DNA of 64,000 nucleotides from an uncultured Verrucomicrobiae bacterium (lineage in GTDB: Bacteria > Verrucomicrobiota > Verrucomicrobiia > Limisphaerales > Palsa-1400): the NCBI GenBank assembly GCA_963825315.1, contig CAWGST010000001.1, positions 2,645,460 to 2,709,459 of the forward strand, given 5' to 3'. This document shows positions 4,920-48,962 of the stretch, piece after piece (the stretch's first letter is position 1; every line of letters begins with the position of its first letter). The notes beneath the pieces were generated by a model that had not been told where the DNA came from, did no database searches, and worked only from the letters and a program-made list of their open reading frames with translations. The translations under genes and the position numbers were made by a program.

Positions 4920-4930
4920 GAGAACCTGCC

Positions 4931-16239: not shown

Positions 16240-16338
16240 TCAAAGCAGGGTCGGCCAAAGCGCAATTTTTCGTCCAGTCACTATGGTAATAGTTTTGTGC
16301 TAGCATTAAATTCGGAACAGCCCATTATCCGGAAAGAT

Positions 16339-17703: not shown

Positions 17704-17727
17704 CAAAAGGCCATTCAACTTTATAAT
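17700..17727 (+). promoter_or_regulatory. Consensus sigma70 promoter, probably giving a leaderless mRNA
   Basis: TTGACA (17700-17705), 16-nt spacer, TATAAT (17722-17727), then ATG at 17733 with no Shine-Dalgarno. Confidence 0.7.
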
Positions 17728-17732
17728 AAAAT

Positions 17733-18332
17733 ATGAAACCGTATATGACTTTGAAAGCCAGCATGGTTCTAGCTGCTTTGGCATTGTCATGCTTCCCACA
17801 ATCGGCCACAGCTCAAGGCAATCTTGTGTTTAATGGTGGTTTCGATACCAGTGCTTCAGGCTGGACGTTGACGGGCACGACGGGCATTGCCTTCTACAAC
17901 GTCAAAAATGGAAATCCGCCCGGCGATGTTGTCCTCGAAGGCTTAACAGCTTCAGCAACCCAAACAGTCAACGGTTTAATCGCTGGCACTAGCTATATCG
18001 TGTCAGGAGATTACCAAGGCCTTGATGGATCTCTTTCCGCGAGTCCGAATTTTGAAGTGACAATGAATGGCACCATATTGTTTGAAACCGTCTTTTCCGG
18101 AAACGTCAACTGGGAGAACTTTGGTGTTCTCTATACCGCTTCCTCATCGGATGCCGTTCTAACCATTCTTGCATCCAGCTCGTATTGCGGTATTGACAAC
18201 ATCTCCGTGGAAGCTGTTCCCGAACCAGACAGTCTTTGCTTGATTGGCGTTGGCGGAATGATGAGCGCAATGTTTTTCAGGAATCGTCGGGAAAAGTTTA
18301 TCAGTGCCGGGAAATGGGTGTTCCCGGCTTGA
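17733..18332 (+). CDS. PEP-CTERM sorting-domain surface protein
   Basis: Signal peptide, NLVFNGGFD sugar-binding-like start, and C-terminal VPEP + TM + RNRR. Confidence 0.85.
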   Translation: MKPYMTLKASMVLAALALSCFPQSATAQGNLVFNGGFDTSASGWTLTGTTGIAFYNVKNGNPPGDVVLEGLTASATQTVNGLIAGTSYIVSGDYQGLDGSLSASPNFEVTMNGTILFETVFSGNVNWENFGVLYTASSSDAVLTILASSSYCGIDNISVEAVPEPDSLCLIGVGGMMSAMFFRNRREKFISAGKWVFPA

Positions 18333-18516
18333 TGGGAGCAGTGAAACTTTTCTGGCCAGGTCGGTTCCATGGATTTCCAAAACTTCCACACGTTTCTAAA
18401 CGCTTGTTTGCCGCAGAGGAACGTGCAAGGTGTCAGGCAAGGTGTCAGGCAAGCGTCAGTTCTCTCTTTTTAAAGTGAAGCTGACTGGAAAAATGAACTT
18501 CACCGCTGCTCTTTGG

Positions 18517-18589
18517 CAGAATTGAAATTATGGCGATCACACCCCGGCAATTCGAGCAGATCCAGGCGAGGCTGAGCGGCTCAAAGCGC
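18517..18589 (+). repeat. 73-bp direct repeat copy 1 (duplicated ruvC 5' end)
   Basis: Matches 19686-19758 with 2 mismatches and includes ATGGCGATCACACCCCGG. Confidence 0.9.
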
Positions 18590-18633
18590 CGCCGCCAAAG
18601 GGTCAGCAGCAACTTTTTTAACGGAGAAAAGCC

Positions 18634-19659
18634 ATGCCCAAAAAGAAATCAGATCAATCTCAGGTAGTGCTATATCAGACCCCCGATGGAAGGGTAACCG
18701 TAAACGTGCTGTTTGCGCGGGATAATTTTTGGCTGACACAGCGGACAATGGCCGATCTTTTTGGCGTAAAGATACCCGCAGTAAACAAGCACCTGAAAAA
18801 CATCTACGCGAGCGGGGAACTGACGCCGGGGGCAACTATTTCCAAAATGGAAATAGCTCAACTTGAAGGTGGCCGCCAAATCTCACGCGAAATCGAGTTC
18901 TACAATCTGGACGCTGTGATTGCCGTGGGATACCGGGTCAATTCCATCAAGGCGACGCATTTTCGGATTTGGGCGACAAACACCTTGCGGGAATACATCG
19001 TCAAGGGGTTTGTCCTCAACGATCAACTGCTCAAGAACGGGCGGGAATTCGGCAAGGATTATTTCGACGAGTTATTGGAGAAAATCCGCGAAATCCGAGC
19101 CAGCGAGCGGCGGGCTTATCAGAAGATCGCGGACGTATTCGAGCAGTGCAGCAGCGATTACCGGGGCAACAGCGAGGAAACGGAGTTGTTCTACAAGATG
19201 GTTCAAAACCAGCTTCACTTTGCGACCACCGGCAAAACCGCCGCCGAAATCGTTTATCAGCGGGCGGACAGCGACAGGCCGTTCATGGGGCTGACGACTT
19301 GGAAGAATTCGCCCCAAGGCAAGATTCTCAAGGGCGATGTAACCATAGCAAAGAATTACCTGAACCAGGTTGAAGTTTCAAAACTGAACCGGCTGGTGGG
19401 CATGTTCATAGATTATGCGGAGGTGCGGGCATTGAACCGGCAGGTGATGACGATGAAGGACTGGTTGAAGCAGGTCGAAAAGTTTTTGAACTATACGGAT
19501 CAGCAGGTGCTTCGTCACGCCGGGAAAATCTCGCATGAAATGGCGGTGGCGAAGGCACATGGGGAATTTGAAAAATATCGGGTGAAACAGGACGTGGAAT
19601 ATATCTCGGACTTCGATCAGGCATTGGCGCGATATCTGAAAGGGAAAAACGAACCATGA
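18634..19659 (+). CDS. RhuM-family protein
   Basis: VVLYQTPDG, WLTQRTMADLF, YNLDAVIAVGYRVNS..ATHFRIWAT, KGFVLND, DYFDELLEKIREIRASERRAYQKI. Confidence 0.85.
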   Translation: MPKKKSDQSQVVLYQTPDGRVTVNVLFARDNFWLTQRTMADLFGVKIPAVNKHLKNIYASGELTPGATISKMEIAQLEGGRQISREIEFYNLDAVIAVGYRVNSIKATHFRIWATNTLREYIVKGFVLNDQLLKNGREFGKDYFDELLEKIREIRASERRAYQKIADVFEQCSSDYRGNSEETELFYKMVQNQLHFATTGKTAAEIVYQRADSDRPFMGLTTWKNSPQGKILKGDVTIAKNYLNQVEVSKLNRLVGMFIDYAEVRALNRQVMTMKDWLKQVEKFLNYTDQQVLRHAGKISHEMAVAKAHGEFEKYRVKQDVEYISDFDQALARYLKGKNEP

Positions 19660-19685
19660 CCCGTCACGTCAAACGGGCTAGCTAA

Positions 19686-19758
19686 CAGAATTAAAATTAT
19701 GGCGATCACACCCCGGCAATTCGAGCAGATCCAAGCGAGGCTGAGCGGCTCAAAGCGC
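19686..19758 (+). repeat. 73-bp direct repeat copy 2 (start of intact ruvC)
   Basis: Matches 18517-18589. Confidence 0.9.
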
Positions 19759-20307
19759 ACTCCCGTCCCGGTTTTTGCGGGCAGTTATCGCGCAAGCTCA
19801 AACAGAAACCAGATCATCATTGGCGTGGACCCTTCGTTGCGCGGGACCGGCTATGGGGTCATCCAGTTGGCCCGGCCGAATCCGCGCGCGCTGGCCCACG
19901 GCACCATCGCCTGCCCGGCGGGCTGGGAACGTTCCCGATGCCTGCTGAAGATCATGCAAACGTTGCGCGAGGTCGTGGCCAAATACCGGCCGACCGTGTG
20001 CGCGATCGAGGGACTCTTTTACGCGCAAAACCTGCAGACGGCGCTGATCATGGGCGAGGCGCGCGGAGCGGCCCTGGCGGCGCTGGCCGAAGCCGGGTTG
20101 GACATTTTTGAAATCGCGCCGCGCAAGGTCAAGCAGGCGGTGGTGGGTTATGGCGCGGCGCAGAAATTGGCGGTGGGCAAAATGGTGCAGCGCTTGTTGC
20201 AGCTCCCGGAACCTCCGTCGCCCGACGCCGCCGACGCCCTGGCCCTCGCCCTGGCCCATGCGCAGGACAGCCAGAGAACCTTCGGCGCGGGAGCGAAGAG
20301 GATTTAA
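19699..20307 (+). CDS. ruvC: Holliday junction resolvase RuvC with N-terminal extension
   Basis: IIGVDPSLRGTGYG, AIEGLF, GEARG, VKQAVVGYG.A.K, DAADALALALAH. Confidence 0.93.
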   Translation: MAITPRQFEQIQARLSGSKRTPVPVFAGSYRASSNRNQIIIGVDPSLRGTGYGVIQLARPNPRALAHGTIACPAGWERSRCLLKIMQTLREVVAKYRPTVCAIEGLFYAQNLQTALIMGEARGAALAALAEAGLDIFEIAPRKVKQAVVGYGAAQKLAVGKMVQRLLQLPEPPSPDAADALALALAHAQDSQRTFGAGAKRI

Positions 20308-24914: not shown

Positions 24915-26427
24915 TGAGGTGGACCCCAAAAACTAGACCAGTGGTTAAGATGGACTTTTACCGATCTGATGAGAGAAAGCAGATCGATGAAAGCAAAACG
25001 CAAACGGCACAGTAGTGCCTTCAAAGCCAAAGTGGGATTCGAAGCCCTGTTGGGGCTTAAGACGGTCGCGCAACTGGCGCGAGAGTACGCGGTGCATCCG
25101 ACGCAGGTCACGCAATGGAAAGCCACCATTCGGGACCGGTTGCCGGAGTTGTTCGAGGCGGGTGCGGCGGGCCACGAGGATCAGGAGGAATTGATCGCGC
25201 AGTTGCATCAAAAGATTGGGCAGTTGACCGTGGACCTGGACTGGCTCAAAAAAAAATCCAAACAGATGGGTCTTTAACATGCTTGGACGAACTGGTCGGT
25301 CCAGATGCGAAGGTGAGCGTGCGCCATCAGTGCGAGCTGTTGGAGGTCTGCCGCGGCACGTATTATTACCTGGCCTGTGCGGAGACGGAGGAGAACCTGG
25401 GGCTGATGCGGCAGTTGGACCAGATGCATTTAGAGCATCCGGTTTATGGGAGCCGCAAGTTGACCGTGCTGTTGCGCCAGCAGGGATGGGCCATCAATCG
25501 CAAGCGGGTGCGGCGGCTGTTGCGCTTGATGGGGATCGAAGCGATCTACGCCAGGCCGCGCACCAGCCTGCCCGGGCCGGGACACCAGATTTTTCCGTAT
25601 CTGTTGAGAGATTTGGTGGTCACGGGGCCGGATCAGGTCTGGTGTTCGGACATCACCTATGTTCCTATGGCCACGGGGTTTATGTATTTGGTGGCGGTGA
25701 TGGATTGGTGGAGTCGCCGCGTGCTGGGCTGGCGGTTGAGCAACACGATGGACACGGCCTTCTGTGTGGACGCTTGGGAAATGGCGTTGCGGCAGGGACG
25801 CCAGGCACCATTGATCTCCAACACCGATCAGGGTTCGCAATTCACCTCGCCGGTGTTTATCGACGCGGTGCAATCGGCCGGAGTGGACGTGAGCATGGAC
25901 GGGCGCAAACGGTGGCTGGACAACCGTTTCATCGAACGGCTCTGGCGGAGCGTCAAGTATGAGGACATCTACCTCCAGGATTACAGCGGCGGCTTGGACG
26001 CCGGACGCGGGCTGGGAAAATGGTTTGACAGTTACAATGACGAGCGGCCCCACCAGGCGCTGGGCTACACGACGCCCTCGGAAGTCTATCGGGCGCCCGA
26101 CTCCTACGGCGCCAAGCCGGCGACCTTGGAAGCGATGCAACCGCAACCCGGAAGAGGCGCAGAAAGGGTGTAGGCAGCCGCTGGCGCGCCCGCAAAGCCA
26201 CTCACAGAAAAGACTTGAAAACAGACCGCCTACGGCGGTAAGAATAGAGGTGCTAACAAAACGGAGAGGGAGAGCGGACTGGAATCAACGAAGGTTCGTT
26301 CTCTCTTTTCGAAAGTTCTTTGAAGCGCAAATCAGGCAAGAGACAACAAGAAACATATATGACAACAGATCGAAGGAGTCCATCTTAATTTATGCGCTTC
26401 GTGGTCTAAATGATGGGGTCCACCTCA
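24915..26427 (+). mobile_element. IS3-family insertion sequence
   Basis: Imperfect TIRs TGAGGTGGACCCCA...TAGACCA and TGGTCTA...TGGGGTCCACCTCA with TG..CA ends; orfA/orfB inside. No target duplication seen. Confidence 0.9.
24987..26173 (+). CDS. IS3 transposase OrfAB via -1 frameshift
   Basis: OrfA 24987..25277 (HSSAFKAKV..HPTQVTQWK). A9 run at 25248-25256. OrfB in the -1 frame with WCSDITY, NTDQGSQFT, DNRFIERLWRSVKYE. Confidence 0.9.
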
Positions 26428-30265: not shown

Positions 30266-31180
30266 TCACCACGCTGATTGTTGGTAGGGTGTGCGCTGTG
30301 CCAGCCATGCCAGATCGACGTCAGGGGTACCAATGATGGCCTCATTGTGGTATGAAACATACTCGACCACATGAATAGTTCGAGAATCCAACCACTTATG
30401 GATCTCGGCATGGCCATCGGCAAAACTGATTGAAGCTCCATTATTGTGATTGGCCCCCGGCAGTTGAGTAAATTGTCCACCGCCTGCATCCACCCCATTT
30501 GTTTCGGCGGGGTCAACATAAAATTGGGCGTTATTGATGGAATCAGGATTCACGTCCAGGAACACAAAACTCATGGCGGGTCCCAGGATGGTAAAACCAC
30601 TCATTTTGGTAACTGGATTAGTGAGACCAGATGGCCAACCAACGAGCCATCGCCCTCCAGGCCCAACGAGTCCATTCATGGCAATACTGCGACAACGATA
30701 CGGCCATCCAGCCGCGCGCTGCGGTGGACTGAGGTAAACATCGGCGGGGCAGCGAAACAGTTGCACGTCGTTAGCGACGTACGGCCCCAATAACGAAGCT
30801 CCCGCTCCGATCAAGCCTAGTGTGTTGGTGTTGTCAGTATTCTGAACAGTCCAATCGAGCTCCCCTTCGCACCAGCATGGCGTCCCCCTCCACGGCGGGG
30901 TGGGGTAATTCTGGTTGTCATGATTATCGGCAAGAATATCATGGTTGTCTTGGGCATAAAGGATCCAGGCCTGGGTCATCTGGCGCATGTTGCCCAGGCA
31001 TTGGAAGGATTTTGCTTCCTGCTGGCTGCCAGCCAATGCGGGCCGAAGCAACAACGCCAGAATTCCCAGAATGAACAGCACCACCAGCAAATCGGTCAGC
31101 GTAAAGGCACCGCAGCCGTCGTCGGGACCATGCCGCTGAGTGGCGAACAACTTGAAATCAGTTCGACGGTTTGTATTCAT
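30266..31180 (-). CDS. Prepilin-type N-terminal / H-X9-DG domain protein (DUF1559-like)
   Basis: GAFTLTDLLVVL, CLGNMRQMTQAW..Y, FRCPAD, HNNGASISFADGH. Confidence 0.85.
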   Translation of the reverse strand: MNTNRRTDFKLFATQRHGPDDGCGAFTLTDLLVVLFILGILALLLRPALAGSQQEAKSFQCLGNMRQMTQAWILYAQDNHDILADNHDNQNYPTPPWRGTPCWCEGELDWTVQNTDNTNTLGLIGAGASLLGPYVANDVQLFRCPADVYLSPPQRAAGWPYRCRSIAMNGLVGPGGRWLVGWPSGLTNPVTKMSGFTILGPAMSFVFLDVNPDSINNAQFYVDPAETNGVDAGGGQFTQLPGANHNNGASISFADGHAEIHKWLDSRTIHVVEYVSYHNEAIIGTPDVDLAWLAQRTPYQQSAW

Positions 31181-31197
31181 AGGCTTTGCTGGATGGT

Positions 31198-34100
31198 CTA
31201 GAACCCCACGACCTTGTAAAATCTTTGGCCGGCGGCGGGTGTGGGGTCCGTAAAATATCCTGTGCCACCGAGAATGGCCGCATTGCCCGGCAGGATCTGC
31301 CATGCCGGGTCGGCCAGGTTGTCCTTGAATTGAAACTGGTAGGTTTTCCCGGGCAGCGCAGGCCAGATGAGCGTGGGATTCTGGCCGGGTGAAGCGCCCG
31401 GAATGGCCTGAACATAAAAAGTCGGGATCATGCCGGCGGTAAAAAGGTTGAAAACAAAAACATCGCTGGCGCGGTTGTAATCGTTTGTCACGAGGTCGGA
31501 GGCCGCGCTTTGAAGAAGCAGAGTCTGTCCATCGCCGCTAAAGAATGGGTTAAGCGACCAGTTATCCGCCGGGAAATTGCCGAACTGGCTCGCGGTCACC
31601 AGCGTGGTCGCGTTGCTGTTCCGGTCATAGATGAAGAGGTTGGGCACGCCGTTGCTGTCGCCCGGCGCCAGATTGCTCGCGTAACTGCGATACGCCACAA
31701 ACCGGCTGTCCGGGCTGATGACCGGCGAATCCGAGACGCCGTTACCCGCCCCGCTGCCGTTGAGATTGTGACTGATCAGAAAATTGGTTTTCGCGAGAAC
31801 ATCAAAGAGGCAAACGTTCTTGAGATTGTTGGTGTTCATTGCGGAGATGGGCGCATTGGTCACGTAAACCAGCAGGCTGCCGTCAGCACTGAAGTTCCAG
31901 GTTCCCGAGGTTAAAAAAGTGTCGGCGCTGCCGGTGGCGACGGTCGAGTTGTTGGTGGGGTTGAAGAGGTCAGCAATGAATAATCCAGTGGCGGTGCTGT
32001 AGGCGAGCCTTTGACCATCCGGACTTATGAAAACTTGCGCCAGGCTGGCCGTGGCATTGGTGTAAACCAACGTGGCCAATAACGAGTTCCATACATACAG
32101 ATAAGTGGACGATGAACCTGCGATTTTTCCAATGAAGGCGACGAAATGTCCATCCGGTGTCATCGCCGACGAGGAGACGGCCGGACTTGAACTTGCCGCC
32201 GTCAGCGCATAGGTGGCGCCCAATTGCAAGTCGCGCAGGAACAGATTCTCGGTTCCGTTTCCAAATGAGCCGGTGGCGAGATTTTGCGCCTGGCTGCGAA
32301 ACAGGACAAACCGGCCATCGCTGCTGAAGACGGGTGAATAAGAACCGGCATTGCCGGGGCCGCTGCCGCTCAGATTCACGCTGACCAGCGTGGTCGTGCC
32401 GCTTTGCAAATCCCGTTCGAATACGTCCACCGCGTTGTTGGTATCGCCCGGCACCAGATTGGCCGCCGAACTGGAGAACACAACATAACGCCCGTCGCCG
32501 CTGATGGAGGCTTGGGAAGAAAAGCCCGCCCCCGACCAACCGTTGGTGGCCACACTGACGAGGATGGTCGTGTCCGAAACCAGGTTCCGAACAAACACAT
32601 CGCGAAAGCCGTTCTGGTCATTGGTCACAAGATTGTCCGCATCGCTCGTGAAGCACACATATTGGCCATTGGCGCTCATGGGAGCGGTGGAAAGAGTGCT
32701 GGGACCATCCGGCGACTGGGATTGAATGAGGGGATTCTGGACCGAAACCAATTCTATCGCATTCGACTGAAGGTCGTAAACCCATGTATTCAGGTAAAGG
32801 TTACGGTCGGCGGTGTTGATGCTCTCGAAGGCGAGAAACCGGGCGCCATCGCTGAGTTTTGGAAAGGCCGCCGGATTGACGCCCATGCCGACGCCGTTGG
32901 TGTCCGAATCCACCAGAACCGTTGTGCCTGCCTGCGTGTCACGGTAATACAGATGGTTTTCGCCCACCAGCGAGTTGGTGGTCAGGTTGGTGGAGCTGCT
33001 GACAAACGCCACGTACCTCCCAGTGCAATCGACCAGCGGCGACCAGGAGCTGCCACTCGCAGGGACGGAATCGCTCAGATCAGCGCTCACCAAAAGATTC
33101 GTGCCAGTGCTCGCGTCCCACAGGTAAACTGCGGTACTCGAACCGTTGGCGGTGGTGTTGGCGACGTTCGCCACGAAGCTTCCGTCCGGACTCAAGTTGA
33201 GGGTGTACATGTCCTCATAAGCGCCGCTCGGAGCGTTGGCATTCGTGTTCACCACATCGGTCTGGCCCGAGAAGAGATGGTAACGAAGGACAACCCCGGC
33301 CGGTTTGGCATAGCCAGCCACACTGACCTCGTAGGCAACCAGCGTGCCGTCGTCGCTGAGGTCATGGCTGAAGCAAACGCCGTTGCTGGAGCCGAAGACC
33401 AGTTGCAGTTGGGAGCGGGCGCTGGCGCTGGCCCAGTAGGTGGTTTGCAGCACGAGATCACGAACGTAGATATCGCCGATGTTGGTAACACCGGCGACGA
33501 GATTGGTGGCCGTGCTGTAAAAAGCCACAAATCGGCCGTCGGGAGTGATGACTGGCGCAGCCGAAGCACTCCCCGCTGTGGTTCCGGTGGACCTGGCGCC
33601 AGGACTGGCCAGAGTGGTTGTGCCCGATTGCATGTCGCGCACAAAAATATCGGGGATGCCGTTCGCATCACCGGCCACCAGGTTGCTGGCGGAACTCACA
33701 AACGCCACGTACCGGCCATCGGGCGTCATGACCGAACTGCCTGAGTTTCCATTGCCAAATCCACCGTTGGTGCTGACGCTAACCAGGATATTGCTGCCAC
33801 TGACCAGATCGCGCATAAAGACATCGGTGGCGTTGTTGGTGTCGCCGCTCACCAGGTTGTCGGCGCTGCTCTGGAACAAGGCAAACCGGCCGTTGGTGGA
33901 AATGCCCGTCGCGAGTGAATCGCCATCGCCACCGCCGTTGCCCGTCTCATTGACGCTGACCAGGGAGGTCACCTCATTCGACCGGTCGCGAAGATACACA
34001 TTCAATCTGGCCGGAAGCAAAACCGGGACGGGATTGCTGTTGCCGAACAGCGTCAGGTTGTTCGCTGCGCTGCTAAAGAGAACGAAACGCCCATCCGCGC

Positions 34101-34263
34101 TGATGATAGCCGGTCCAGAATCGCCGTTGCCACCGGCAGCCGAGGCAAGGGATGGATCTCGAACAGAGATCAAGCCGAACGGACTCGCGGAGGCCAGGGC
34201 ACCGGCGAAAACCATTGAAAGGATCAGAGACGAAATGTGCGAATGCGGATGAGGCGGCCTCAT
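31198..34263 (-). CDS. Large secreted TolB-like/PD40 beta-propeller repeat protein
   Basis: Signal peptide, many ISADGRFVxF / SNLVxGDTN..DVFxRD repeats, C-terminal TYQFQFKDNL..W...RFYKV tail. Confidence 0.85.
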   Translation of the reverse strand: MRPPHPHSHISSLILSMVFAGALASASPFGLISVRDPSLASAAGGNGDSGPAIISADGRFVLFSSAANNLTLFGNSNPVPVLLPARLNVYLRDRSNEVTSLVSVNETGNGGGDGDSLATGISTNGRFALFQSSADNLVSGDTNNATDVFMRDLVSGSNILVSVSTNGGFGNGNSGSSVMTPDGRYVAFVSSASNLVAGDANGIPDIFVRDMQSGTTTLASPGARSTGTTAGSASAAPVITPDGRFVAFYSTATNLVAGVTNIGDIYVRDLVLQTTYWASASARSQLQLVFGSSNGVCFSHDLSDDGTLVAYEVSVAGYAKPAGVVLRYHLFSGQTDVVNTNANAPSGAYEDMYTLNLSPDGSFVANVANTTANGSSTAVYLWDASTGTNLLVSADLSDSVPASGSSWSPLVDCTGRYVAFVSSSTNLTTNSLVGENHLYYRDTQAGTTVLVDSDTNGVGMGVNPAAFPKLSDGARFLAFESINTADRNLYLNTWVYDLQSNAIELVSVQNPLIQSQSPDGPSTLSTAPMSANGQYVCFTSDADNLVTNDQNGFRDVFVRNLVSDTTILVSVATNGWSGAGFSSQASISGDGRYVVFSSSAANLVPGDTNNAVDVFERDLQSGTTTLVSVNLSGSGPGNAGSYSPVFSSDGRFVLFRSQAQNLATGSFGNGTENLFLRDLQLGATYALTAASSSPAVSSSAMTPDGHFVAFIGKIAGSSSTYLYVWNSLLATLVYTNATASLAQVFISPDGQRLAYSTATGLFIADLFNPTNNSTVATGSADTFLTSGTWNFSADGSLLVYVTNAPISAMNTNNLKNVCLFDVLAKTNFLISHNLNGSGAGNGVSDSPVISPDSRFVAYRSYASNLAPGDSNGVPNLFIYDRNSNATTLVTASQFGNFPADNWSLNPFFSGDGQTLLLQSAASDLVTNDYNRASDVFVFNLFTAGMIPTFYVQAIPGASPGQNPTLIWPALPGKTYQFQFKDNLADPAWQILPGNAAILGGTGYFTDPTPAAGQRFYKVVGF

Positions 34264-34395
34264 AAATGATCCTCATTATTCATGCTTTTCGGCTTAACCG
34301 GCCTAATGATGACGGATTGGAGGCCGGGAGACAAGCAAAAAATAGCTTCATCAAGGGCAGGCAATGCCACTCTCATACAGGTTTCCTTTCGCACT

Positions 34396-34545
34396 TGAGA
34401 ACATCGTTCATCTACACATAACTCGCACGAGGAAGCGCGAATCTTTCAATTATTTTGCATTTTTTCTCCCTGCTCATTTGCCGTGCCGCAGGAGCCAAAC
34501 CAGAAGCCTGTGGTCATTTCATAGAGAACTTTTCCAAGGGAATAC
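34396..34545 (-). pseudogene. Collapsed duplicate of the Ser/Thr kinase 3' end plus downstream regulatory region
   Basis: 34396-34504 resembles 38522-38632. 34506-34540 matches 38905-38939 (LGKVLYEMxTG) with 1 mismatch. About 270 bp between the two blocks is missing. Confidence 0.8.
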
Positions 34546-34573
34546 CGGTCTTGAAGGCCATTAACGCGGTCCA

Positions 34574-37500
34574 TTATTGCAGAGCAATGACGCGATAGAA
34601 TCTCTGGGCGCCGGCGGGAGCGGGGTCGATGGCGTAACCCTGGCCGCCGACGATGCTGACGTTGTTGGTCAAGTTCTGCCACGCAGGGTCATTGAGGTCG
34701 TTTTTGAACTGCACCTGATACGTCCTTCCCGGCGTGGTTAACCATGTGACGGTCGGGTCCTGGGCGGCCCCGTTTTGCCAACTCACACCGTTGAAGGTGA
34801 GGCTTTGAATAACGAAGGAGCCATCCGAGTTGGTGGCGGCGGATGAGAACGGCTGGAACGCGAAGAGGTCACCCCATTCGTTGTAATCTCCCGACGCGAG
34901 ATCCGACGCCCAACTTTCGAACACGAGGGTTTCGCCCGCGCCGCTAAAGACGGGGGTCAACGATCGGTTGTTGGCCGGTCCGTATCCGAATAAATCGGGA
35001 GTGAGCAGTGTTGTCGTCCCTGTGAGCCGGGAATAAAGGAAAAGGCCAGGCACACCGTTGGTGTCGCCCGGCACGAGGTTGTTGGCAAAACTGCGATAGG
35101 CCACAAAAAGTCCGTCGCCGCTGATGGTTGGGGAATCCGAGTTTCCGTTGCCCCCGCCGCTGGAACTGTCATTCTGGCCGACAAGAATGTTGCTGCCTGT
35201 GGCAAAACTGTACAGATAAATTTGGTTGAAGGCCCCTGTCTGGCCCGCGACATAAACGAGATATTGGCTGTCCGCGCTGAATTGCATGGTGGCATGAGAG
35301 GAGGACGGCACGTTGCTGAGAGCCATACTTGTCCTGGCGACAGTATCAACTGCCCACGACTGGCTGGTGCCGTAATAGCCGATGCGCGTTCCGCTGGGAC
35401 TGATGGCAATGGGGCCGCCTCTCGTCAATTGGGAATTGGTGTAAATGTTTTCTCCAGACTGGGCGCTCCATAGATAAACGGTTGTTGAACTCCCGGTTCC
35501 GTAGGCGACGTGTAGGCCATCCGGGGTCATCGCGCCTGTGCAGCTCGCCGAGGTGCTGGCAAGCGCCGTGATGGCGCGGGTTGTGCCGGCCTGCATGTCG
35601 CGCCAATACAGATTTCCGGCTGGGTTGCTCACGGAGCCGGCAGCCAGATTGCCCGCTGTGCTTTGAAAGAGAACATAGCGGCCATCGCCGCTGATCGACG
35701 GCGAGTATGACGACCCGTTGCCAGGCCCGTTTCTGTTAGTATTGACACTGACAAGCAGGGTGGTGTTTGACTCAAGGTCGCGCAGAAAAACGTCCCGGGC
35801 GTTGTTGGTATCATTGGCCACAAGATTGCTGGCGCTGCTGGCAAACACCACATAGCGCCCATTGCCGCTAATGGCCGGGCTTGTGGACATGCCATTGCCT
35901 GGACCGGTCCCGTTCGTATTGACACTGACGAGGTAATTCGTGCCGGCAAGAATATCGCGCACAAAAACGTCCCGGTATCCGTTTGTATCGCCGGGAACAA
36001 GATTGTCCGCCTCGCTGTAAAAGGCGACGTAGCGGCCATTTGTGCTGACGCATGAACCGCCAATCTCGCTGGGACCGTCCGGGGTGATCGAGGCCAGCGC
36101 CGGAAGACTGGCCGAAATGAGCTCAGTCGTGTTTGCCGGCACATTGTGAACGAATACGTTGTAAACGTGGTTGCTGTCATTGGCCACGAGGCCTTCGCCG
36201 AGGGATTCGAACGCCACGGCATTGCCGTTGGTGCTCAAACGCGGAAATGTCATCAAACTTTCCGGGGAACTCGCGCCGTAACTGTTCGCATCGATCCACG
36301 TCGTTGTTCCCGCCTGCATGTCACGGAGAAAAAGATTGGTGCCCACGGCCGGAGAATTGGCGGTCAAGCTTGAGGCGTTGGCAAGGAAGGCGACGTAGCG
36401 CCCGGTGCAATCCATGGCCGGCCAATAACAGAGTGAGGTTGCTGGCACAACGCCGCCGGCGTTTCCGCTGGCCAGGGTCGTGGTGTTGCTTTGCGAGTCC
36501 CAGACTTCCACACAGGTTCGGCCAAGGGTGCTCCCGACGTTGGCAACGAACGCGATAAACCGTCCGTCGGGTGTCATATCGAGGTTCCGGGTGTTCAGCT
36601 CGGAGCCCGAGAGAAATCCGAGAGCGTTCGTGTTGACGATATCTGTCAAACCTGTTGCCAGGCTGTAACGGAGGATGACGCCTCCCAGCAACGAGGAAGA
36701 AACCCCGTTGGTCAGGGGACATGCCTCGTAGGCGACAAATTGCCCGTCGTGGCTCAGACTGAAATTGCAGGAAATGGCATTGGATGTGCCTTGCAATGAG
36801 TACATCACAGCATGAGCATCGGCACTGACCCACGTCGTCGTGCCGCCGATCAGGTCGCTGAGGAAAATCTCGCCAGTATTGGTAACTCCGGCCACGAGGT
36901 TGGTCGCCGCGCTGTAAAACGCGACATAGCGGCCATCGGTTGAAATCGCGGGCAACTCGGAACTGCCAGGCGAGCCGGCGACACCGGTGGACTGCGCGCC
37001 AACGCTGACCAGGGTTGTCGTTCCTGCCTGCGTATCGCACACGAAAACATCGGGAATCCCGTTGGTGTCACCAGGGGATATATCGCTCGAGGCGCTGACA
37101 AACGCCACATAGCGGCCGTCAGGGGTCATTACTGAACTCCGGGAAACTCCGTTTGGAGCGATGCCGTTGCTGCCGGCGCTGATGAGTGTTGTCACGCCGT
37201 TGACCACATCGCGCAGGAAAATCTGGCTTGTTCCAGATGGATTGTTTGTGACCAAATTACTTGCGGTGCTCTCAAACAGTGCGAATCGGCCGTTGGTGGA
37301 AATGGCGCTGGGCCAGGAATCGCCGTTGCCGCCGTCTGTCCCGGCAAGGTCGATGCTGACCAGGATCGTGTTTCCATTGGTTCGATCATGCAAAAAAACG
37401 TTTATGTGTGGTGTGAACAGAGTTGGAATGGGAATCCCGTTGCTGCTCATGGCCAGATTATTGGCCAGGCTGGCGAACAAGATATATCTTCCATCTGCGC

Positions 37501-37714
37501 TTATGACGGGTGCCAAAGAATCTCCGCTGCCACCAGCGGGCGGGGCAAAAATCCCACTTGCGACGCTAACAGGCTGGACCGCCGCATGGGTCGGCGGGCA
37601 AAACAGGGCCACGCAAAGCAGAAGGAATGCGACGTATTTCATGCCTGCGCCGGAGAGCATTTGATTGTTGGCCATAATTGGTGTTCTCGAAGGTTTACTG
37701 ATGGCAGGCGGCAT
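34574..37714 (-). CDS. Large secreted TolB-like/PD40 beta-propeller repeat protein (paralog)
   Basis: Same repeat architecture as 31198..34263, with C-terminal TYQVQFKNDL..W...RFYRV. The true start is probably an internal Met near 37640-37680. Confidence 0.85.
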   Translation of the reverse strand: MPPAISKPSRTPIMANNQMLSGAGMKYVAFLLLCVALFCPPTHAAVQPVSVASGIFAPPAGGSGDSLAPVISADGRYILFASLANNLAMSSNGIPIPTLFTPHINVFLHDRTNGNTILVSIDLAGTDGGNGDSWPSAISTNGRFALFESTASNLVTNNPSGTSQIFLRDVVNGVTTLISAGSNGIAPNGVSRSSVMTPDGRYVAFVSASSDISPGDTNGIPDVFVCDTQAGTTTLVSVGAQSTGVAGSPGSSELPAISTDGRYVAFYSAATNLVAGVTNTGEIFLSDLIGGTTTWVSADAHAVMYSLQGTSNAISCNFSLSHDGQFVAYEACPLTNGVSSSLLGGVILRYSLATGLTDIVNTNALGFLSGSELNTRNLDMTPDGRFIAFVANVGSTLGRTCVEVWDSQSNTTTLASGNAGGVVPATSLCYWPAMDCTGRYVAFLANASSLTANSPAVGTNLFLRDMQAGTTTWIDANSYGASSPESLMTFPRLSTNGNAVAFESLGEGLVANDSNHVYNVFVHNVPANTTELISASLPALASITPDGPSEIGGSCVSTNGRYVAFYSEADNLVPGDTNGYRDVFVRDILAGTNYLVSVNTNGTGPGNGMSTSPAISGNGRYVVFASSASNLVANDTNNARDVFLRDLESNTTLLVSVNTNRNGPGNGSSYSPSISGDGRYVLFQSTAGNLAAGSVSNPAGNLYWRDMQAGTTRAITALASTSASCTGAMTPDGLHVAYGTGSSTTVYLWSAQSGENIYTNSQLTRGGPIAISPSGTRIGYYGTSQSWAVDTVARTSMALSNVPSSSHATMQFSADSQYLVYVAGQTGAFNQIYLYSFATGSNILVGQNDSSSGGGNGNSDSPTISGDGLFVAYRSFANNLVPGDTNGVPGLFLYSRLTGTTTLLTPDLFGYGPANNRSLTPVFSGAGETLVFESWASDLASGDYNEWGDLFAFQPFSSAATNSDGSFVIQSLTFNGVSWQNGAAQDPTVTWLTTPGRTYQVQFKNDLNDPAWQNLTNNVSIVGGQGYAIDPAPAGAQRFYRVIALQ

Positions 37715-38501
37715 GCGCGGTCAGCCACAGCCAATCGACATTGGTGCTCGAAACTGGAATACCGGCATAGCCGATCATCACGCCATACGTCACAGGTATC
37801 ATGAGGGATGTGGTCTGCCACTGATGAATCTCCCCATGTCCGTCTGCAAAAGAGATCCCGCAGCCTCCTTCGAGATAAGAAGCTGGCACATGGTAAAATA
37901 ATGGTGTCGCGAATGATACCTCAAAATAACCGTCGTTGATGCTCCCTGGATGCACGTCACTAAAGATAAATGTGTTGCCTGGAGAAGGACAGGTGAGGTC
38001 AGAGCCACGGATATAACACAAATATCCTGGGCTGTAGGAAATCCCAAGCGTCGTTCCCATCTGGCCGTTCATCGAATAGCTCCTGAGGCGCTGTCCGTTC
38101 GCGGAAGGAACGACATCGGCGGGGCATTTTAAAACAGTGATGTTGCTGCTGATATAAGGGAATATGAGTGTGTTAGTGTATAATGAAACATTTGTATTCT
38201 CATTCGCGGCAAACCAGTTTTCACCTGTTATGGCAGGGCACCATCCACGGTTGGCCGGAGTGCCGAGGGGCGCGTTGGGGAGCATAACGTCATTATTATC
38301 ATCCAGGTACATCGCCCAGGCGTTTTGCATTTGCCGCAGGTTGGCGAGGCAGCCGGCGGCGGCGCTCCTGCTTTTTGAAGCGGCCAGCGCCGGGAGCATC
38401 ATCCCGGCCAGCAGGATGATGACCGCGATGACAACCAACAATTCAACCAGAGTAAAGCCTTTGCGGGAATCCGAAGATAAATCCTTTGCATTCATACTCA
38501 T
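37695..38501 (-). CDS. Prepilin-type N-terminal / H-X9-DG domain protein (DUF1559-like)
   Basis: KGFTLVELLVVIAVI, CLANLRQMQNAW..Y, KCPAD, GISFADGH. Confidence 0.88.
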   Translation of the reverse strand: MSMNAKDLSSDSRKGFTLVELLVVIAVIILLAGMMLPALAASKSRSAAAGCLANLRQMQNAWAMYLDDNNDVMLPNAPLGTPANRGWCPAITGENWFAANENTNVSLYTNTLIFPYISSNITVLKCPADVVPSANGQRLRSYSMNGQMGTTLGISYSPGYLCYIRGSDLTCPSPGNTFIFSDVHPGSINDGYFEVSFATPLFYHVPASYLEGGCGISFADGHGEIHQWQTTSLMIPVTYGVMIGYAGIPVSSTNVDWLWLTAHAACHQ

Positions 38502-38601
38502 AACGAACTTGCCTGCTTTTGTGAGAACAAAGTTCTTTTATACATAACTCGCACGAGGCAGCGCCAATCTTTCAATTTTTTTGCATTTATTTTCTTCCCG
38601 C

Positions 38602-39591
38602 TCATTCGCTGTGCCGCAGGAGCCAAACCAGACGCCAGACCAGAAAGATGAGGAAACCCGCCCCGATCGCCGCCCCAAAGACGCCAATCACCCAGCCCAG
38701 CGACCGGCCGGTGCCCCAAATCGAAATTCGCCGGTTGAATTTGAATGAAAGCAGCGCCATCATGAACTCATCGGCCGAACGATAGCGCAACCACGGATTG
38801 GTCCGACACGCCTTCAGAACGATTCGGATGAATTGCGCCAGTTCAAGGTCATCCACCGTCGTCCCCAAATCCGCGGGCAAAACCGGGTATTCTTCCGCGC
38901 GGTTGCCTGTGCTCATTTCATAGAGAACTTTTCCAAGGGCATAGATGTCCGCCTGAGCCGTTCCGGGGCCTTCCGGCGCGATGAAACCCTCGGTGCCGAC
39001 ATACTCGCGCTCGTCGGACATCCCGGTGACCAGACCCACGTCGGCCAGCTTGGGAAAACCGTTGACAAAAATGATGTTCGACGGTTTGAGATCGCGGTGA
39101 ATCAGGTTTTGCCGGTGCAGAAATCCCAGCGCCGACGCGATGGCAGCGCCCAAGCGGATGCATTCCCCGACAGGCAGGCGGCCTCGCTGGCGAATGTCTT
39201 GCGCCAGCGTCCGCGGCAAATAAGTTTCGGCATTGATGGCTTGCCCGGTGGTTACGCCGTCGGCCAACTCCATGACGCAGTAAAAATAACCCTCCGCCTC
39301 GCCGCCCCCGACTTGAAGAATATCCACCAACCCGTCGTGCAATCGCGAAACCGGCTCAAATCTCAAAATGCCGGCCAACTCGCTCAGGGATATCTGCCGC
39401 CGCCCGCCCGCCCGAAAACGCACAATCTTGACGGCGCGATAGGCCCCGAGCGTGTTCCTGGCCAGCCAAACCTCACCGCTCGCGCCGCCGCCGATCCGCC
39501 GAATCATCTGATGTTCGGGAATGGAGACGGGCGGCCGGACGGAGGACGGTGAAATTGAGTCATGGCCGGAAGAATCTGGAGTTTTGTTCAT
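38602..39591 (-). CDS. Hanks-type Ser/Thr protein kinase with C-terminal TM helix
   Basis: IGGGASGEV, AVK, HRDLKPSN, ADVG, GTEGFIAPE, DIYALG; one C-terminal TM. Confidence 0.93.
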   Translation of the reverse strand: MNKTPDSSGHDSISPSSVRPPVSIPEHQMIRRIGGGASGEVWLARNTLGAYRAVKIVRFRAGGRRQISLSELAGILRFEPVSRLHDGLVDILQVGGGEAEGYFYCVMELADGVTTGQAINAETYLPRTLAQDIRQRGRLPVGECIRLGAAIASALGFLHRQNLIHRDLKPSNIIFVNGFPKLADVGLVTGMSDEREYVGTEGFIAPEGPGTAQADIYALGKVLYEMSTGNRAEEYPVLPADLGTTVDDLELAQFIRIVLKACRTNPWLRYRSADEFMMALLSFKFNRRISIWGTGRSLGWVIGVFGAAIGAGFLIFLVWRLVWLLRHSE

Positions 39592-39613
39592 GTCGCGTTT
39601 CCAACCGCTGGCG

Positions 39614-40252
39614 CTAATGCCGGCCTTTCTCCAGAGCCAGGATTTCCTCTTTGATCATGGCCGCAACCCGGTGTTTTGCCAGGTAAACCCGGGGGGCGCT
39701 CACGCCCAGCATCTGCGCGACTTTATTGACAGGCCACTGCCGGAGCGCATAGAGATCAAAGATCTGGAAATGCTCCTCCTTGACCCGGCATTTGACCCGT
39801 GCGATGGCGCTCTTCAGCAAGTTCTCTTTCCATTCCAGCTCCCAGGCGGCTTCATCATCGTCCCCCGCCATGCATGGCATCTCGCCCTGCTCCTGTGGCG
39901 CGGCTGGCCCGTCAGACAAACGGCGCGTTCTCTTTCTCAATTGGTCGGCGATGCGCCAGCGTGTAATGTTGCGAAGCCAACCCTTAAATGAACCCAGGCT
40001 CCGGTCGCACTTGAATTTATGGATGTCTCTGGCCACGCAAATGACGGTCTCTTGAACCACCTCCTGTGCCTCCGTCTCGGTCAAGCCGGAGCGAAGCGCA
40101 ACCGAATAAATCAGCCGCCAATACGTGTCAAAAAAATCCTGCCAACTCTCATTGTCCTGCCAATCATGCAAACGGTTAAGCAAGCTGTATCGGGTGGGAA
40201 TAGCATGGTCTGTTTGCGACCCCATGCTCTTAATTTGCCCGGATTCCATCAC
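39614..40252 (-). CDS. ECF RNA polymerase sigma factor
   Basis: WQDFFDTYWRLIY, EAQEVVQET, GSFKGWLRNIT and region-4 HTH (VAQMLG..VYLAKHRV). Confidence 0.9.
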   Translation of the reverse strand: MMESGQIKSMGSQTDHAIPTRYSLLNRLHDWQDNESWQDFFDTYWRLIYSVALRSGLTETEAQEVVQETVICVARDIHKFKCDRSLGSFKGWLRNITRWRIADQLRKRTRRLSDGPAAPQEQGEMPCMAGDDDEAAWELEWKENLLKSAIARVKCRVKEEHFQIFDLYALRQWPVNKVAQMLGVSAPRVYLAKHRVAAMIKEEILALEKGRH

Positions 40253-40279
40253 AAAAGCAACTCATTTCGAGCCAACCTA

Positions 40280-46731: not shown

Positions 46732-47790
46732 TCAGGGCCGGCCGGGGGAGATCGAAGCAACGGGACGCACGGTCAGGGCGCACGCGATGACGGGATTGCT
46801 CCGGGGCTGACAAAGGCCGCCTTGCGCGTTGTCCAGAAATTGCCCGCCGTTAATGAAGTTGTTGGTGCAGGAATCGTTGTTGACCTGGAACGCCCTGCCG
46901 CCGCACCCGACCACCCGCAGGTTGTTGAACTTGTTGCCCGTGCATTCGGTGGCGGGGTAAAGCCACCAACCGAAACGGCTCCACTCGCCCGCCTGCGCCA
47001 TAAAGACTCCGTCGTGCCGGCTGTGGCGAATCGTCACTCCTTCAAACACGTTGTTGTGCGAATCCCGCATGAAAATGCCCAGGTCGTTGCCAGTTAGAAC
47101 CGCGCCGTCAATGACATTATGGTCGAACTCCAGATCCAGCGAGATTCCCGCCGCCAGGTTGTCGTGCAGGTTCAACTGGCTGAAATGGCTGTCCTCGGTC
47201 CGGTAACAGGCCAGCCCGTCAAATTGATTGTCGTAGGCCGTGTAATCCCGCAACGTCAGACGCCGCGTCCGCCCTGTGGACACCAAGCCGCCGGAGCGGC
47301 AACGGCGGCAGATGACATGCTCGATAATGGCGTTGTCCGCGTCGCAGACTTGAACTCCGTTGTTATTAATGAGGACGCCATTGGTAAGAATTCGCCAAAG
47401 TTCCGTCTGCTGGTGAGTCCGGTTGCCGTCCACGAGCAGGTCGGAAAGATGCAGGCGCTGTGTCGGCCCTTTGGCTTTGTCCTTCGGAGGGGCCAGGATG
47501 ACGACGGTGCAATTGGCGTTGTCGGCCAGGGACAGAATCGTCTCCGGTCCGGCGCCGCGCAACGTTTGCCCGTCCTGCCGCAGGATAATCGGCTGATGGA
47601 CGAGGTAAATCCCCCGGCCCAGAACGACTTGAGCGCCGACGCCAAGCTTGTCCAGCGCCAGTTGAATCCCTTCCCCGCCGGCGACAGGAGGGACCTCCAG
47701 CGTCGCCGCGAGGCCGGACAAAGGAATGAGGAAGAGCAAAAGAACATTGGCGGCAAATGTTCCCGCCTTCAAGCTAAAGTTTGAGCTCAA
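46732..47790 (-). CDS. Secreted right-handed parallel beta-helix protein
   Basis: Signal peptide, GIQLALD, DGN, and repeated N..DG/N..AG beta-helix turns. Confidence 0.75.
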   Translation of the reverse strand: MSSNFSLKAGTFAANVLLLFLIPLSGLAATLEVPPVAGGEGIQLALDKLGVGAQVVLGRGIYLVHQPIILRQDGQTLRGAGPETILSLADNANCTVVILAPPKDKAKGPTQRLHLSDLLVDGNRTHQQTELWRILTNGVLINNNGVQVCDADNAIIEHVICRRCRSGGLVSTGRTRRLTLRDYTAYDNQFDGLACYRTEDSHFSQLNLHDNLAAGISLDLEFDHNVIDGAVLTGNDLGIFMRDSHNNVFEGVTIRHSRHDGVFMAQAGEWSRFGWWLYPATECTGNKFNNLRVVGCGGRAFQVNNDSCTNNFINGGQFLDNAQGGLCQPRSNPVIACALTVRPVASISPGRP

Positions 47791-48128: not shown

Positions 48129-48962
48129 ATGACTAACTCTGAAACAAAAAGTTCCCGGGGGTTTACCCTCATCGAACTGCTCGTGGTCATGGCAATCATC
48201 GCCATCCTGGCAGCGATGCTCCTGCCCGCGCTGGCCAGGGCGAAAATGTCAGCCCAACGCACTGCCTGCATAAGCAACACCAAGCAACTGACGCTTTCCT
48301 CGCTGCTTTATATTTCTGACGCCAACGGGCGCTGCTTTCCCGCTTATGACAACGTAGCCGAAGACGCGGGCGGGCTTTGGATGAGCAATCTGACTGCTTA
48401 TGATGCGAAGGTGGACAAGGTGCGTTTGTGTCCTTCCGCCAGCATTTCGAATTACAATGTGAATCCCAATTACGCGGGCGCGGGCGCGTGTGACACCGCT
48501 TGGGTCTGGAATCAGTCAAGGCCGTGGTTGCAGGGCAGCTACGCCATAAACGGCTGGTTTTATTCCAGCACCGGCGCCGGAGCATGGCTCGCCAATCAGA
48601 ACGAGGCAACCAACTACTTTAACAAGGAAGGGAATGTTCAGAAACCGTCCCTGACACCCATCTTTGCGGACTCCGTCTGGGTTGACTTCGAGCCGATGGA
48701 AACGGACATGCCAGGTGTAAATCTTTATCTCTGCGGCGGATGGGTGAACCCTGCTGCGATGGAGCGCATCGTCACGCCCCGCCACGGCTGGACAAATCCC
48801 AAATTGGCGCCGACATTCCATCCCGTTAACCAAAGACTCCCTGGCGGCATTGATATCGGGATTATCGATGGCCATGTCGAACAACCCAAATTGGAGCAGC
48901 TTTGGAATTACTCCTGGCATTTGAATTGGGTTGTCCCAAGTCCAAGACCGGGCCTTAAGTAA
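48129..48962 (+). CDS. Prepilin-type N-terminal domain protein (DUF1559-like)
   Basis: [46 protein letters not shown]...IDGHVE. Confidence 0.9.

Follow-up and report, generated by a model that had tools for sequence, protein, structure and literature searches.

Organization of the locus

The 64,000-nucleotide stretch analysed here, referred to below as the window, belongs to contig CAWGST010000001.1 of the genome assembly GCA_963825315.1 of an uncultured Verrucomicrobiae bacterium, a soil organism of the Limisphaerales type. Seven features on its minus strand, between positions 30266 and 40252, are the subject of this study. They follow one another in the order extracytoplasmic function (ECF) sigma factor gene, gene of a tail-anchored Hanks-type Ser/Thr kinase (STK), PIL1, PROP1, a remnant of the kinase gene, PROP2 and PIL2, where PIL stands for prepilin-like proteins and PROP for large propeller proteins (Table 1). 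The same genes, with this order, strand and coordinates, had been listed in an initial annotation of the region, and the open reading frames (ORFs) and family matches agree with it. The best overall explanation of the locus, towards which we lean, is a regulator-plus-output cassette in which two PIL/PROP operons lie behind the same ECF-type promoter.

Table 1. Features of the sigma/kinase and PIL/PROP locus (positions in the window)
Feature	Position	Strand	Characteristics
Conserved element CTCGAAATGAGTTGCTTTTG	40252..40271	-	Upstream of the sigma gene; common to loci L081, L082 and L001 despite differing flanking genes
ECF sigma factor	39614..40252	-	Longest ORF 212 aa; PF04542 (Sigma70_r2), TIGR02937; sigma-2.2 motif GLTETEAQEVVQET
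Hanks-type Ser/Thr kinase	38602..39591	-	329 aa; PF00069 (Pkinase), catalytic motifs intact, one C-terminal transmembrane helix
P1, promoter-like TGAAAGA-N16-CGAGT	38547..38574	-	28-55 nt past the kinase stop codon; distance to the PIL1 start 46 nt
Palindrome GAAC-N3-GTTC	38525..38535; 34399-34409	-	About 12-22 nt downstream of CGAGT at P1 and P2; also in L081 at about 11680
PIL1, prepilin-like	37695..38501	-	268 aa; N_methyl; N-terminus KG/FTLVELLVV; globular domain ends ...CGISFADGHGEIHQW
PROP1, PD40 tandem beta-propeller	34574..37714	-	1046 aa; Sec signal; PF07676; C-terminal beta-sandwich module ending RFYRV
Kinase-gene remnant	34396..34544	-	Subdomain-IX fragment fused to the kinase 3' end and a copied intergenic promoter region
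P2, promoter-like copy of P1	34421..34448	-	158 nt upstream of the PROP2 start; weight matrix score 58.7, site untrained
PROP2, PD40 tandem propeller	31198..34263	-	1021 aa; PF07676; PROP>PIL subfamily
PIL2, prepilin-like	30266..31180	-	304 aa from MNTNRR; N-terminus CGA/FTLTDLLVV; literal H-X9-DG motif HNNGASISFADG

The product of the sigma gene matches PF04542 with 40.2 bits (cutoff 24) and, over residues 36-203, TIGR02937 with 70 bits (cutoff 42.9), which identifies it as an ECF (group 4) sigma-70 factor. The true start of the gene is likely to be the ATG at 40225, giving a protein of approximately 203 aa, because of the comparison with L081 and L082 (loci collected for comparison are designated by L numbers). 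The kinase gene begins 22 nt past the sigma stop codon. No anti-sigma gene was found at the locus, as the initial annotation had stated, and no ORF lies in the 22-nt spacer; the ECF/kinase pair without an anti-sigma factor is a conserved unit in the relatives. The kinase matches PF00069 with 88 bits (cutoff 31.7), and the motifs GGGASG, AVK, HRDLKPSN, DVG and APE, which mark it as a Hanks kinase, can be read in its translation. The products of PROP1 and PROP2 match PF07676 (PD40) with 66.7 and 58.9 bits, respectively (cutoff 20.9), and are thereby identified as PD40 propellers. The start of PROP1 is likely to lie at 37675 or 37642. PIL2 starts at the codon giving MNTNRR and not at the ATG at 31303; the longer ORF would overlap PROP2.

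Conservation of the PIL-PROP pair and of the cassette

A locus search with the single PROP1 sequence returned only distant PD40 proteins of other phyla, and an alignment-based search was used instead. Among the 26 full-length PROP homologs in Verrucomicrobiota-type loci, 23 are adjoined by a PIL gene on the same strand, and both orders, PIL>PROP and PROP>PIL, occur. The PIL-PIL and PROP-PROP identities of 17 pairs are correlated (r = 0.70), and none of 2000 label permutations reached this value. The correlated identities imply that the pair is inherited and diverges as a unit. The one-to-one pairing of PIL and PROP, which had been noticed in the window, is thus conserved and co-diverging in Verrucomicrobiota relatives. 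The two pairs of the window are, to judge from their identities (32% for PIL and 47% for PROP), old paralogs.

The initial annotation had proposed that the neighbourhood be compared across relatives, and in this comparison the ECF-STK-PIL-PROP combination was found to recur. The closest sigma homologs found in metagenomes are those of L081 and L082, and both loci carry the four genes in wholly different surroundings. In L081, the sigma factor and the kinase are each 77% identical to those of the window; in L082, the identities are 73% for the sigma factor, 66% for PIL and 71% for PROP. The same arrangement is present in L093, L109, L241 and L248, in the last two with the promoter-like motif described below between the kinase gene and PIL. 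An alternative order, ECF-STK-PROP-PIL(-PIL-PIL), was observed in L097, and a further pair linked to sigma and kinase genes in L238. Over 20 kb, L001 and L082 share 98-99% identity; one clean deletion of 4,039 bp (L082:11636-15674) sets L001 apart.

Other gene contents were also observed. In L085 (L085:11752-14736), the same sigma/kinase genes and promoter are followed not by PIL-PROP but by genes for a secreted protein of 170 aa and a PMT/ArnT-like, multi-pass membrane protein of 795 aa. In the cultured relative Pedosphaera parvula Ellin514 (L295:11235-13732), genes of GT2 and PMT_2 type come after a PIL-PROP pair that has neither the motif nor an adjacent sigma/kinase of this clade. The neighbours in L085 and Ellin514 hint at a link to glycosylation.

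A shared promoter-like motif

Prediction of the regulatory signals was based on comparison of the loci; generic scans for sigma-70 promoters and terminators performed no better than on shuffled sequence. The motif TGAAAGA-N16-CGAGT has exactly two matches in the 64-kb window, P1 and P2, against 0.08 expected. The palindrome that follows it at both sites could be an operator or a leader hairpin. In the collected loci, the motif lies between the kinase gene and the next gene (L081, L082, L085, L093, L097 and L109), upstream of PIL/PROP genes without an adjacent regulator (L095, L096, L098 and L105) or directly upstream of the sigma gene (L002, L097 and L109). When a 52-nt position weight matrix (PWM) was applied to 5.1 million positions, i.e. 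both strands of all collected sequence, matches of at least 22 bits were obtained only upstream of PIL/PROP or of the sigma gene. The matrix also recovered P2 of the window and a second site in L097, both of which lie outside its training set.

The exact pattern was further searched in one genome per species, 185,579 genomes in all. Among the matches listed, most are chance matches in AT-rich genomes, and at least about 23 sites show extended similarity; all of the latter lie in loci of 53-59% G+C, and those with titles belong to metagenome-assembled genomes of Verrucomicrobiota. Of 15 loci with genes of any of the four families among these listed matches, 14 have the motif immediately upstream and on the same strand. 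It precedes the sigma gene in L210, L238, L241, L244 and L290, occupies the junction between kinase and PIL/PROP in L184, L241, L248 and L267, and stands upstream of PIL/PROP in L185, L215, L232, L249, L282 and L291. Among the loci collected by way of the sigma factor, four of the five with a sigma identity of at least 56% contain the motif, the exception being the deletion in L001, and none of the 78 below this value does.

The motif has the signature expected of an ECF target promoter because of its -35/-10 layout, its placement before the sigma operon in the sister clade and its restriction to one clade. We infer from these comparisons that the sigma factor of the window reads TGAAAGA-N16-CGAGT. 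The sigma/kinase module therefore probably controls both PIL/PROP pairs through P1 and P2. Control of both pairs had been suggested by the initial annotation, and the shared, clade-specific motif speaks strongly for it.

Autoregulation of the window sigma gene through the same motif was considered and rejected; a different conserved element, CTCGAAATGAGTTGCTTTTG, sits upstream of this gene. The element is distinct from TGAAAGA/CGAGT and may be a housekeeping-type promoter (TTGMTT-N17-weak -10). Constitutive synthesis of the regulator, with activation after translation, would agree with such a promoter.

The origin of P2 is evident from the 310-nt gap between PROP1 and PROP2. The initial annotation had listed a kinase remnant here, and this gap does contain DNA copied from the resident kinase gene. 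The stretch 34506-34544 (39 nt) is 95% identical to the part of the kinase gene encoding YALGKVLYEMSTG. It is joined directly to the stretch 34396-34508 (115 nt), which is 87% identical to the last approximately 35 nt of the kinase gene and the intergenic region between the kinase gene and PIL1. A 42-codon ORF at 34446-34574 reads through the remnant. By its sequence, the remnant is a copy of the kinase gene that has an internal deletion of about 270 nt and lacks the 5' part. The identity between remnant and kinase DNA is much higher than that between PROP1 and PROP2, and the copying or conversion is therefore fairly recent. The remnant appears to supply PROP2-PIL2 with a duplicate of P1. The PROP>PIL order also occurs with a complete regulator, as in the L097-type loci (ECF-STK-PROP-PIL).

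The proximity of the sigma/kinase genes to PIL and PROP might also be incidental, the pairs being ordinary members of a very large paralogous family. PIL-like genes are indeed very abundant, with a third one at 48129-48962 in the window itself, and many PIL-PROP pairs have no regulator. An incidental origin is nevertheless hard to reconcile with the recurrence of the four-gene arrangement, in either gene order, amid three or more unrelated sets of flanking genes, or with a motif that is common to the upstream regions of sigma genes and of PIL/PROP genes and is absent from the third PIL gene. This explanation is disfavoured, and we regard it as highly improbable.

The sigma factor and its kinase

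Activation of a sigma factor by a kinase has precedents in EcfP/PknT of Vibrio parahaemolyticus and EcfK/PknS of Xanthomonas citri, the outputs of which are a polymyxin-resistance regulon and a type VI secretion system (T6SS), respectively (PMC8999054, PMC13147305). In the ECF43 group, the DxxD of region sigma-2.2 is replaced by an uncharged motif with the consensus QTTA (STTA in EcfP and QATE in EcfK), and phosphorylation of the motif Thr at position 3 supplies the negative charge (PMC8999054, PMC13147305). The locus of the window resembles these systems in that an ECF sigma factor and a transmembrane Hanks kinase are encoded together without an anti-sigma gene, with adjacent envelope or secretion genes as the known or predicted output. 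It differs from them in its kinase, which has no extracytoplasmic domain, and in its predicted output, the pilin-like/propeller pairs.

A further difference concerns region sigma-2.2. The initial annotation had taken TETEAQE to stand where DAED is canonical. This string is present, but its E-A-Q-E aligns on the D-A-E-D of Mycobacterium tuberculosis SigE, and the argument built on it is wrong. In 120 sigma homologs, position 1 of the DAED equivalent is always E, position 4 is always D or E, and position 3, which corresponds to the phospho-Thr site of EcfP, is Q in 110. In contrast to ECF43, the clade of the window thus has EAQE or EAQD, with both acids invariant, in place of an uncharged motif. 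The retention of the acidic residues together with Gln at the phospho-Thr position of EcfP means that a charge-restoring switch of the ECF43 type is not indicated. The Thr in GLT, to which the initial annotation had drawn attention, is located three residues upstream of EAQE at a typical helix-cap position and is Thr or Ser in 112 of the 120 homologs. Other conserved Ser/Thr residues include T19 and S22 in the N-terminal TRxSLLxRL motif and T108 at the start of the linker, the last being Thr in 74 of 120.

By analogy with the two known pairs, activation of the sigma factor through phosphorylation by the kinase is plausible, at about even odds in our judgement, and no specific site is predicted. 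The kinase might instead regulate the sigma factor without an EcfP-like charge switch, either by tethering or sequestering it at the membrane in the manner of an anti-sigma factor or by phosphorylation at T19/S22, T57 or T108. This would accommodate the retained DAED-equivalent acids and the conservation of several other Ser/Thr residues. Kinase-linked ECF groups that keep DAED may work differently (PMC8999054), and EcfK uses a second site in the linker (PMC13147305). The candidate residues may, however, be purely structural; T57, for example, occupies a helix N-cap position. We put this alternative forward tentatively.

In its surroundings, the sigma factor resembles the groups ECF59-62, ECF217, ECF267 and ECF283 of Planctomycetes and relatives, which also have hosts of the Planctomycetes-Verrucomicrobia-Chlamydiae (PVC) assemblage, a kinase neighbour and, except for ECF267, no anti-sigma factor. 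These groups also keep an acidic sigma-2.2 motif with Ser/Thr nearby. The likeness is one of gene neighbourhood and sequence features. The nearest NCBIfam models for PVC bacteria score far under their cutoffs (TIGR02989, 29 against 124.6 bits; TIGR02984, 27 against 183.8 bits). Going by its sequence features, the sigma family appears to behave as do those PVC groups that are linked to kinases and have kept a DAED-like motif. No Verrucomicrobia-specific description of kinase-linked ECF groups was found in the literature searched, and we know of no regulon or promoter described in Verrucomicrobiota for groups of the ECF59-62/217/267/283 type.

The kinase has a single transmembrane (TM) helix at residues 297-326 of 329. 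The chain ends three residues later, with the tail WRLVWLLRHSE, and has no extracytoplasmic domain. In 14 orthologs the layout is the same: the core of the TM helix varies, the extreme C-terminus directly after it is conserved as WR[LI]xWLL[RK]H, and the kinases of the clade all end 2-4 residues past the helix. The kinases beside sigma homologs of 44-52% identity (L050, L056, L057, L071, L004, L014, L049 and L063) have their TM helix at the same place (about 300-340), but continue past it into large extracytoplasmic regions composed of two WD40 propellers, of PEGA plus FGE-sulfatase domains, or of tetratricopeptide repeats (TPR).

The contrast between sensor-less and long kinases is the basis for another explanation, in which PROP provides the extracytoplasmic input of the kinase, besides or instead of serving as output, and may dock by way of the membrane helix of PIL. 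Binding of a ligand to the propeller would be relayed through the WRLxWLL[KR]H tail, and transcription of the pair by the sigma factor would close a positive feedback loop. Besides the same-layout kinases of related sigma factors that carry propellers or other domains, the truncated chain with its invariant tail motif is consistent with this idea, as is the presence of a secreted propeller as the next-but-one gene in many loci of the clade. Against it, tblastn with PROP gave no match to the long kinases, PD40 and WD40 being not detectably homologous here; a kinase gene is missing beside most PIL-PROP pairs; in L001 the kinase has been retained although the pair is gone; and in L085 the kinase and promoter precede the small secreted protein and the PMT-like membrane protein. 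A feedback of PROP/PIL as the missing sensor, which would be compatible with their role as output, is accordingly rated as unlikely. Gene fission as a link between the propellers of the long kinases and PROP was rejected as homology for the same WD40/PD40 difference, and functional analogy only is retained.

The PIL and PROP proteins

PIL1 matches PF07963 (N_methyl) with 28.1 bits (cutoff 21.2) and TIGR02532 with 20.9 bits (cutoff 16.3), and thus carries a class III signal; its first approximately 58-60 residues are GspG-like. PIL2 has no PF07963 match and is not recognized by the N_methyl model; its N-terminus reads GA/FTLTD, with Asp at +5. The initial annotation had described the PIL proteins as prepilin/H-X9-DG proteins. 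The match to the H-X9-DG model is weak: the motif is literally present in PIL2 (HNNGASISFADG), but the TIGR04294 score of PIL2 (15.8 bits) is below the cutoff of 19, and PIL1 has Leu in place of the His and no TIGR04294 match. In 44 members of the PIL1 family, the His position of H-X9-DG is L in 28 and H in 5, and DGH is invariant. Phe at +1, Glu at +5 and the C-terminal DGH are essentially invariant in the family, and position -1 is Ala in 35 members and Gly in 9. Ala at -1 is unusual for substrates of prepilin peptidase.

Neither PIL1 nor PIL2 has a match to PF07596 (DUF1559, SBP_bac_10) at E<=0.01. Some PIL homologs of about 50% identity have a precomputed PF07596 match, and homologs are annotated as H-X9-DG proteins; a distant relationship of PIL to DUF1559 is likely. 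The AlphaFold2 (AF2) model of PIL1 (pLDDT 90) consists of a long N-terminal helix and a mixed globular domain, and a search of the Protein Data Bank (PDB) with this fold gave no match to any solved structure. PIL shares with the GspG, H-X9-DG and DUF1559 pilins the class-III-type signal, the hydrophobic helix with Glu at +5, the GspG-like first 58 residues and the C-terminal ...FADGH.... It differs from them in a globular domain about twice the size of that of GspG, without a counterpart among solved structures, in the mostly Ala -1 position, in the mostly Leu His position of the PIL1 subfamily and in scores of PIL1 and PIL2 below the PF07596 and TIGR04294 thresholds.

PROP has an ordinary Sec-type signal peptide and no catalytic domain. 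In the AF2 model of PROP1 (pLDDT 80), the signal-peptide helix is followed by about 16 four-stranded blades and a C-terminal beta-sandwich. Foldseek with this model returned only generic tandem propellers (E 1e-19 to 1e-21), including tricorn protease (1k32), and was functionally uninformative. The family is large, with more than 7,000 database proteins at E<=1e-30, most of them about 50% identical over the full length and about 1,000-1,050 aa long. PROP resembles the TolB/PD40 (COG0823) and tricorn-protease propellers in its PD40 repeats, its periplasmic or secreted location and its tandem-propeller fold. It is not orthologous with TolB; the TolB equivalog TIGR02800 gave 20.2 and 32.1 bits against a cutoff of 343, and no tol/pal genes are near. 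PROP is further set apart by some 16 blades within about 1,000 aa followed by a C-terminal beta-sandwich, by the lack of a protease or any other catalytic domain, by a constant length of about 1,000-1,050 aa and by its pairing with a pilin-like gene.

The C-terminal module of PROP, of approximately 60-80 aa (...TYQVQFKxxLxDPxWQ...RFYRV), was found at 34577-34760 of the window, at the C-terminus of PROP2 and at L085:11780-12292. It has no match in Pfam at E<=10. Representative clusters with the module number 1,522; their proteins range from 55 to more than 3,000 aa and almost always carry it at the very C-terminal end, in some cases as up to 12 tandem copies. Sorting or anchoring is a possible function.

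The model put forward with the initial annotation sees PIL as a pilin-like adaptor. A machine of the type II secretion system/type IV pilus (T2SS/T4P) type would assemble it, and PROP would be the exported adhesin or cargo that it carries or presents. The class-III-type N-terminus of PIL1 (N_methyl 28 bits) with its GspG-like beginning, the strict, co-diverging one-to-one pairing and the binding-type fold of PROP without a catalytic domain would fit such an adaptor. Strains that are nearly identical differ in whether they have the pair, a frequent pattern for surface proteins. Several properties are at odds with it: the signal peptide of PROP is of the ordinary Sec type, PIL2 fails the N_methyl model, Ala and not Gly occupies -1 in most PIL1-family members, and the globular fold of PIL matches no solved pilin or pseudopilin. 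Moreover, neither the Pfam-scanned ORFs of at least 200 aa in the window nor the flanks of the related cassettes yielded GspD/E/F, PilB/C/Q or prepilin peptidase. A function of PIL as an export or anchoring adaptor for PROP through a type-IV-filament machine is therefore regarded as doubtful.

A third prepilin-like gene of the window (N_methyl 38 bits) is encoded on the plus strand and adjoins a divergent gene for a right-handed beta-helix (NosD-like) protein at 46732-47790 on the minus strand.

Proposed mechanism and significance

We propose a cassette in which the regulator consists of the ECF sigma factor and the co-encoded, tail-anchored Hanks kinase, and the output of the paralogous operons PIL1-PROP1 and PROP2-PIL2, each behind a putative promoter with -35 TGAAAGA, a 16-nt spacer and -10 CGAGT. 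In the first step, the kinase would be switched on at the membrane; it carries no sensor domain itself. It would then activate the sigma factor, presumably by phosphorylation, and RNA polymerase with this sigma factor would transcribe both pairs. The Sec-exported PROP, with its approximately 16 blades, would serve as a binding module of the envelope for a putative ligand, and PIL as its partner or tether, possibly in physical contact with it. PIL would initially be anchored in the inner membrane by its N-terminal helix, similar to a pseudopilin. The second pair appears to have gained its promoter by copying of the segment comprising the kinase 3' end and the promoter.

A number of observations weigh against this cassette. 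The sigma/kinase genes are adjacent in only 3 of the 20 loci found through PROP, most pairs having no adjacent regulator, and the motif is present in only 7 of these 20. L092, which contains the closest relative of PIL1-PROP1, has neither the motif nor the sigma/kinase genes. The motif also precedes secreted proteins without PIL, namely an RCC1-like propeller (L229), an LRR-type protein (L218) and a 462-aa protein (L182). The sigma genes of the subclade to which the window belongs lack the motif upstream, and autoregulation is seen in the sister clade only. The deletion in L001 takes the promoter together with PIL, spares only the final few codons of PROP, and leaves sigma and kinase intact. 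The retained sigma-2.2 acids and the Gln at the EcfP phospho-site mean that the known activation mechanism does not carry over directly. The evidence for an interaction of PIL and PROP consists of adjacency and co-divergence. Finally, no RNA runs with the sequence of this locus were found, only soil DNA metagenomes having matched. The regulator-less pairs and the deletion in L001 imply that the linkage of regulator and pair is recurrent but facultative and that the pair is dispensable at the strain level.

The motif-associated repeat proteins form a group of their own. The secreted proteins behind the motif in L182, L212, L218 and L229 (RCC1-like propeller, BspA/LRR-like) share a leader of the MKTK(R/Q)NLIQIGLL type.

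A more elaborate form of the sensing idea combines three parts: a surface or periplasmic receptor, in which a 16-blade propeller tethered by a pseudopilin would capture an external ligand; a helix-to-helix coupling of PIL, in the membrane, to the conserved tail of a kinase deprived of its own sensor; and a sigma factor, activated by this kinase, that transcribes more receptor pairs, so that sensing amplifies itself. We consider this combination quite improbable. If it were true, it would give the H-X9-DG/DUF1559 pilin-like superfamily of PVC bacteria its first assigned function. In Planctomycetes and Verrucomicrobia, this superfamily ranks with those that have expanded most. To our knowledge, no function is known for them, and DUF1559 is seldom mentioned in the literature searched.

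Kinase-linked ECF sigma factors, including their presence in PVC bacteria, are already known. No earlier descriptions were found of the PIL/PD40-propeller pair, of the promoter motif and its regulon, of a sensor-less kinase clade with a conserved tail, or of the retention of the acidic sigma-2.2 motif in the clade. The PIL family gains a specific conserved partner, the tandem PD40 propeller of about 1,000 aa, a clade of kinase-linked ECF regulators and a predicted promoter, TGAAAGA-N16-CGAGT. Partner, regulator and promoter together turn an unannotated family into a testable system. The combination of an acidic sigma-2.2 motif with a sensor-less kinase also makes this ECF clade a case outside the EcfP model. 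The functional statements made here are predictions from sequence; should the predicted regulon fail, the region would have the ordinary content of a regulator and its neighbour genes.

Flanking genes

The flanks are unrelated to the cassette. A DFP/CoaB-like gene and a gene for a GH2 glycosidase are located upstream, and an ABC_tran_2 gene on the opposite strand downstream. A gene of the rve-type integrase/insertion sequence (IS) kind lies at 25115-26173, approximately 4 kb from PIL2. The G+C content of the stretch 16000-20000 is low (0.51-0.52 against about 0.58), and a RhuM-family gene is situated inside it at 18634-19659; the stretch comes after the gene for a 963-aa NIDO-domain protein at 14812-17703. 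The low-GC stretch and the integrase/IS gene may represent mobile DNA. At the other end of the window, a full-length serpin gene is encoded at 60334-61620 on the minus strand (PF00079, 380 bits); serpins are uncommon in bacteria. A gene for a FlgK-like flagellar hook-associated protein was found at 7928-9196 on the minus strand, close to the genes for an OprB porin, an Nramp protein and an MgtE_N-domain protein at 3495-7898.

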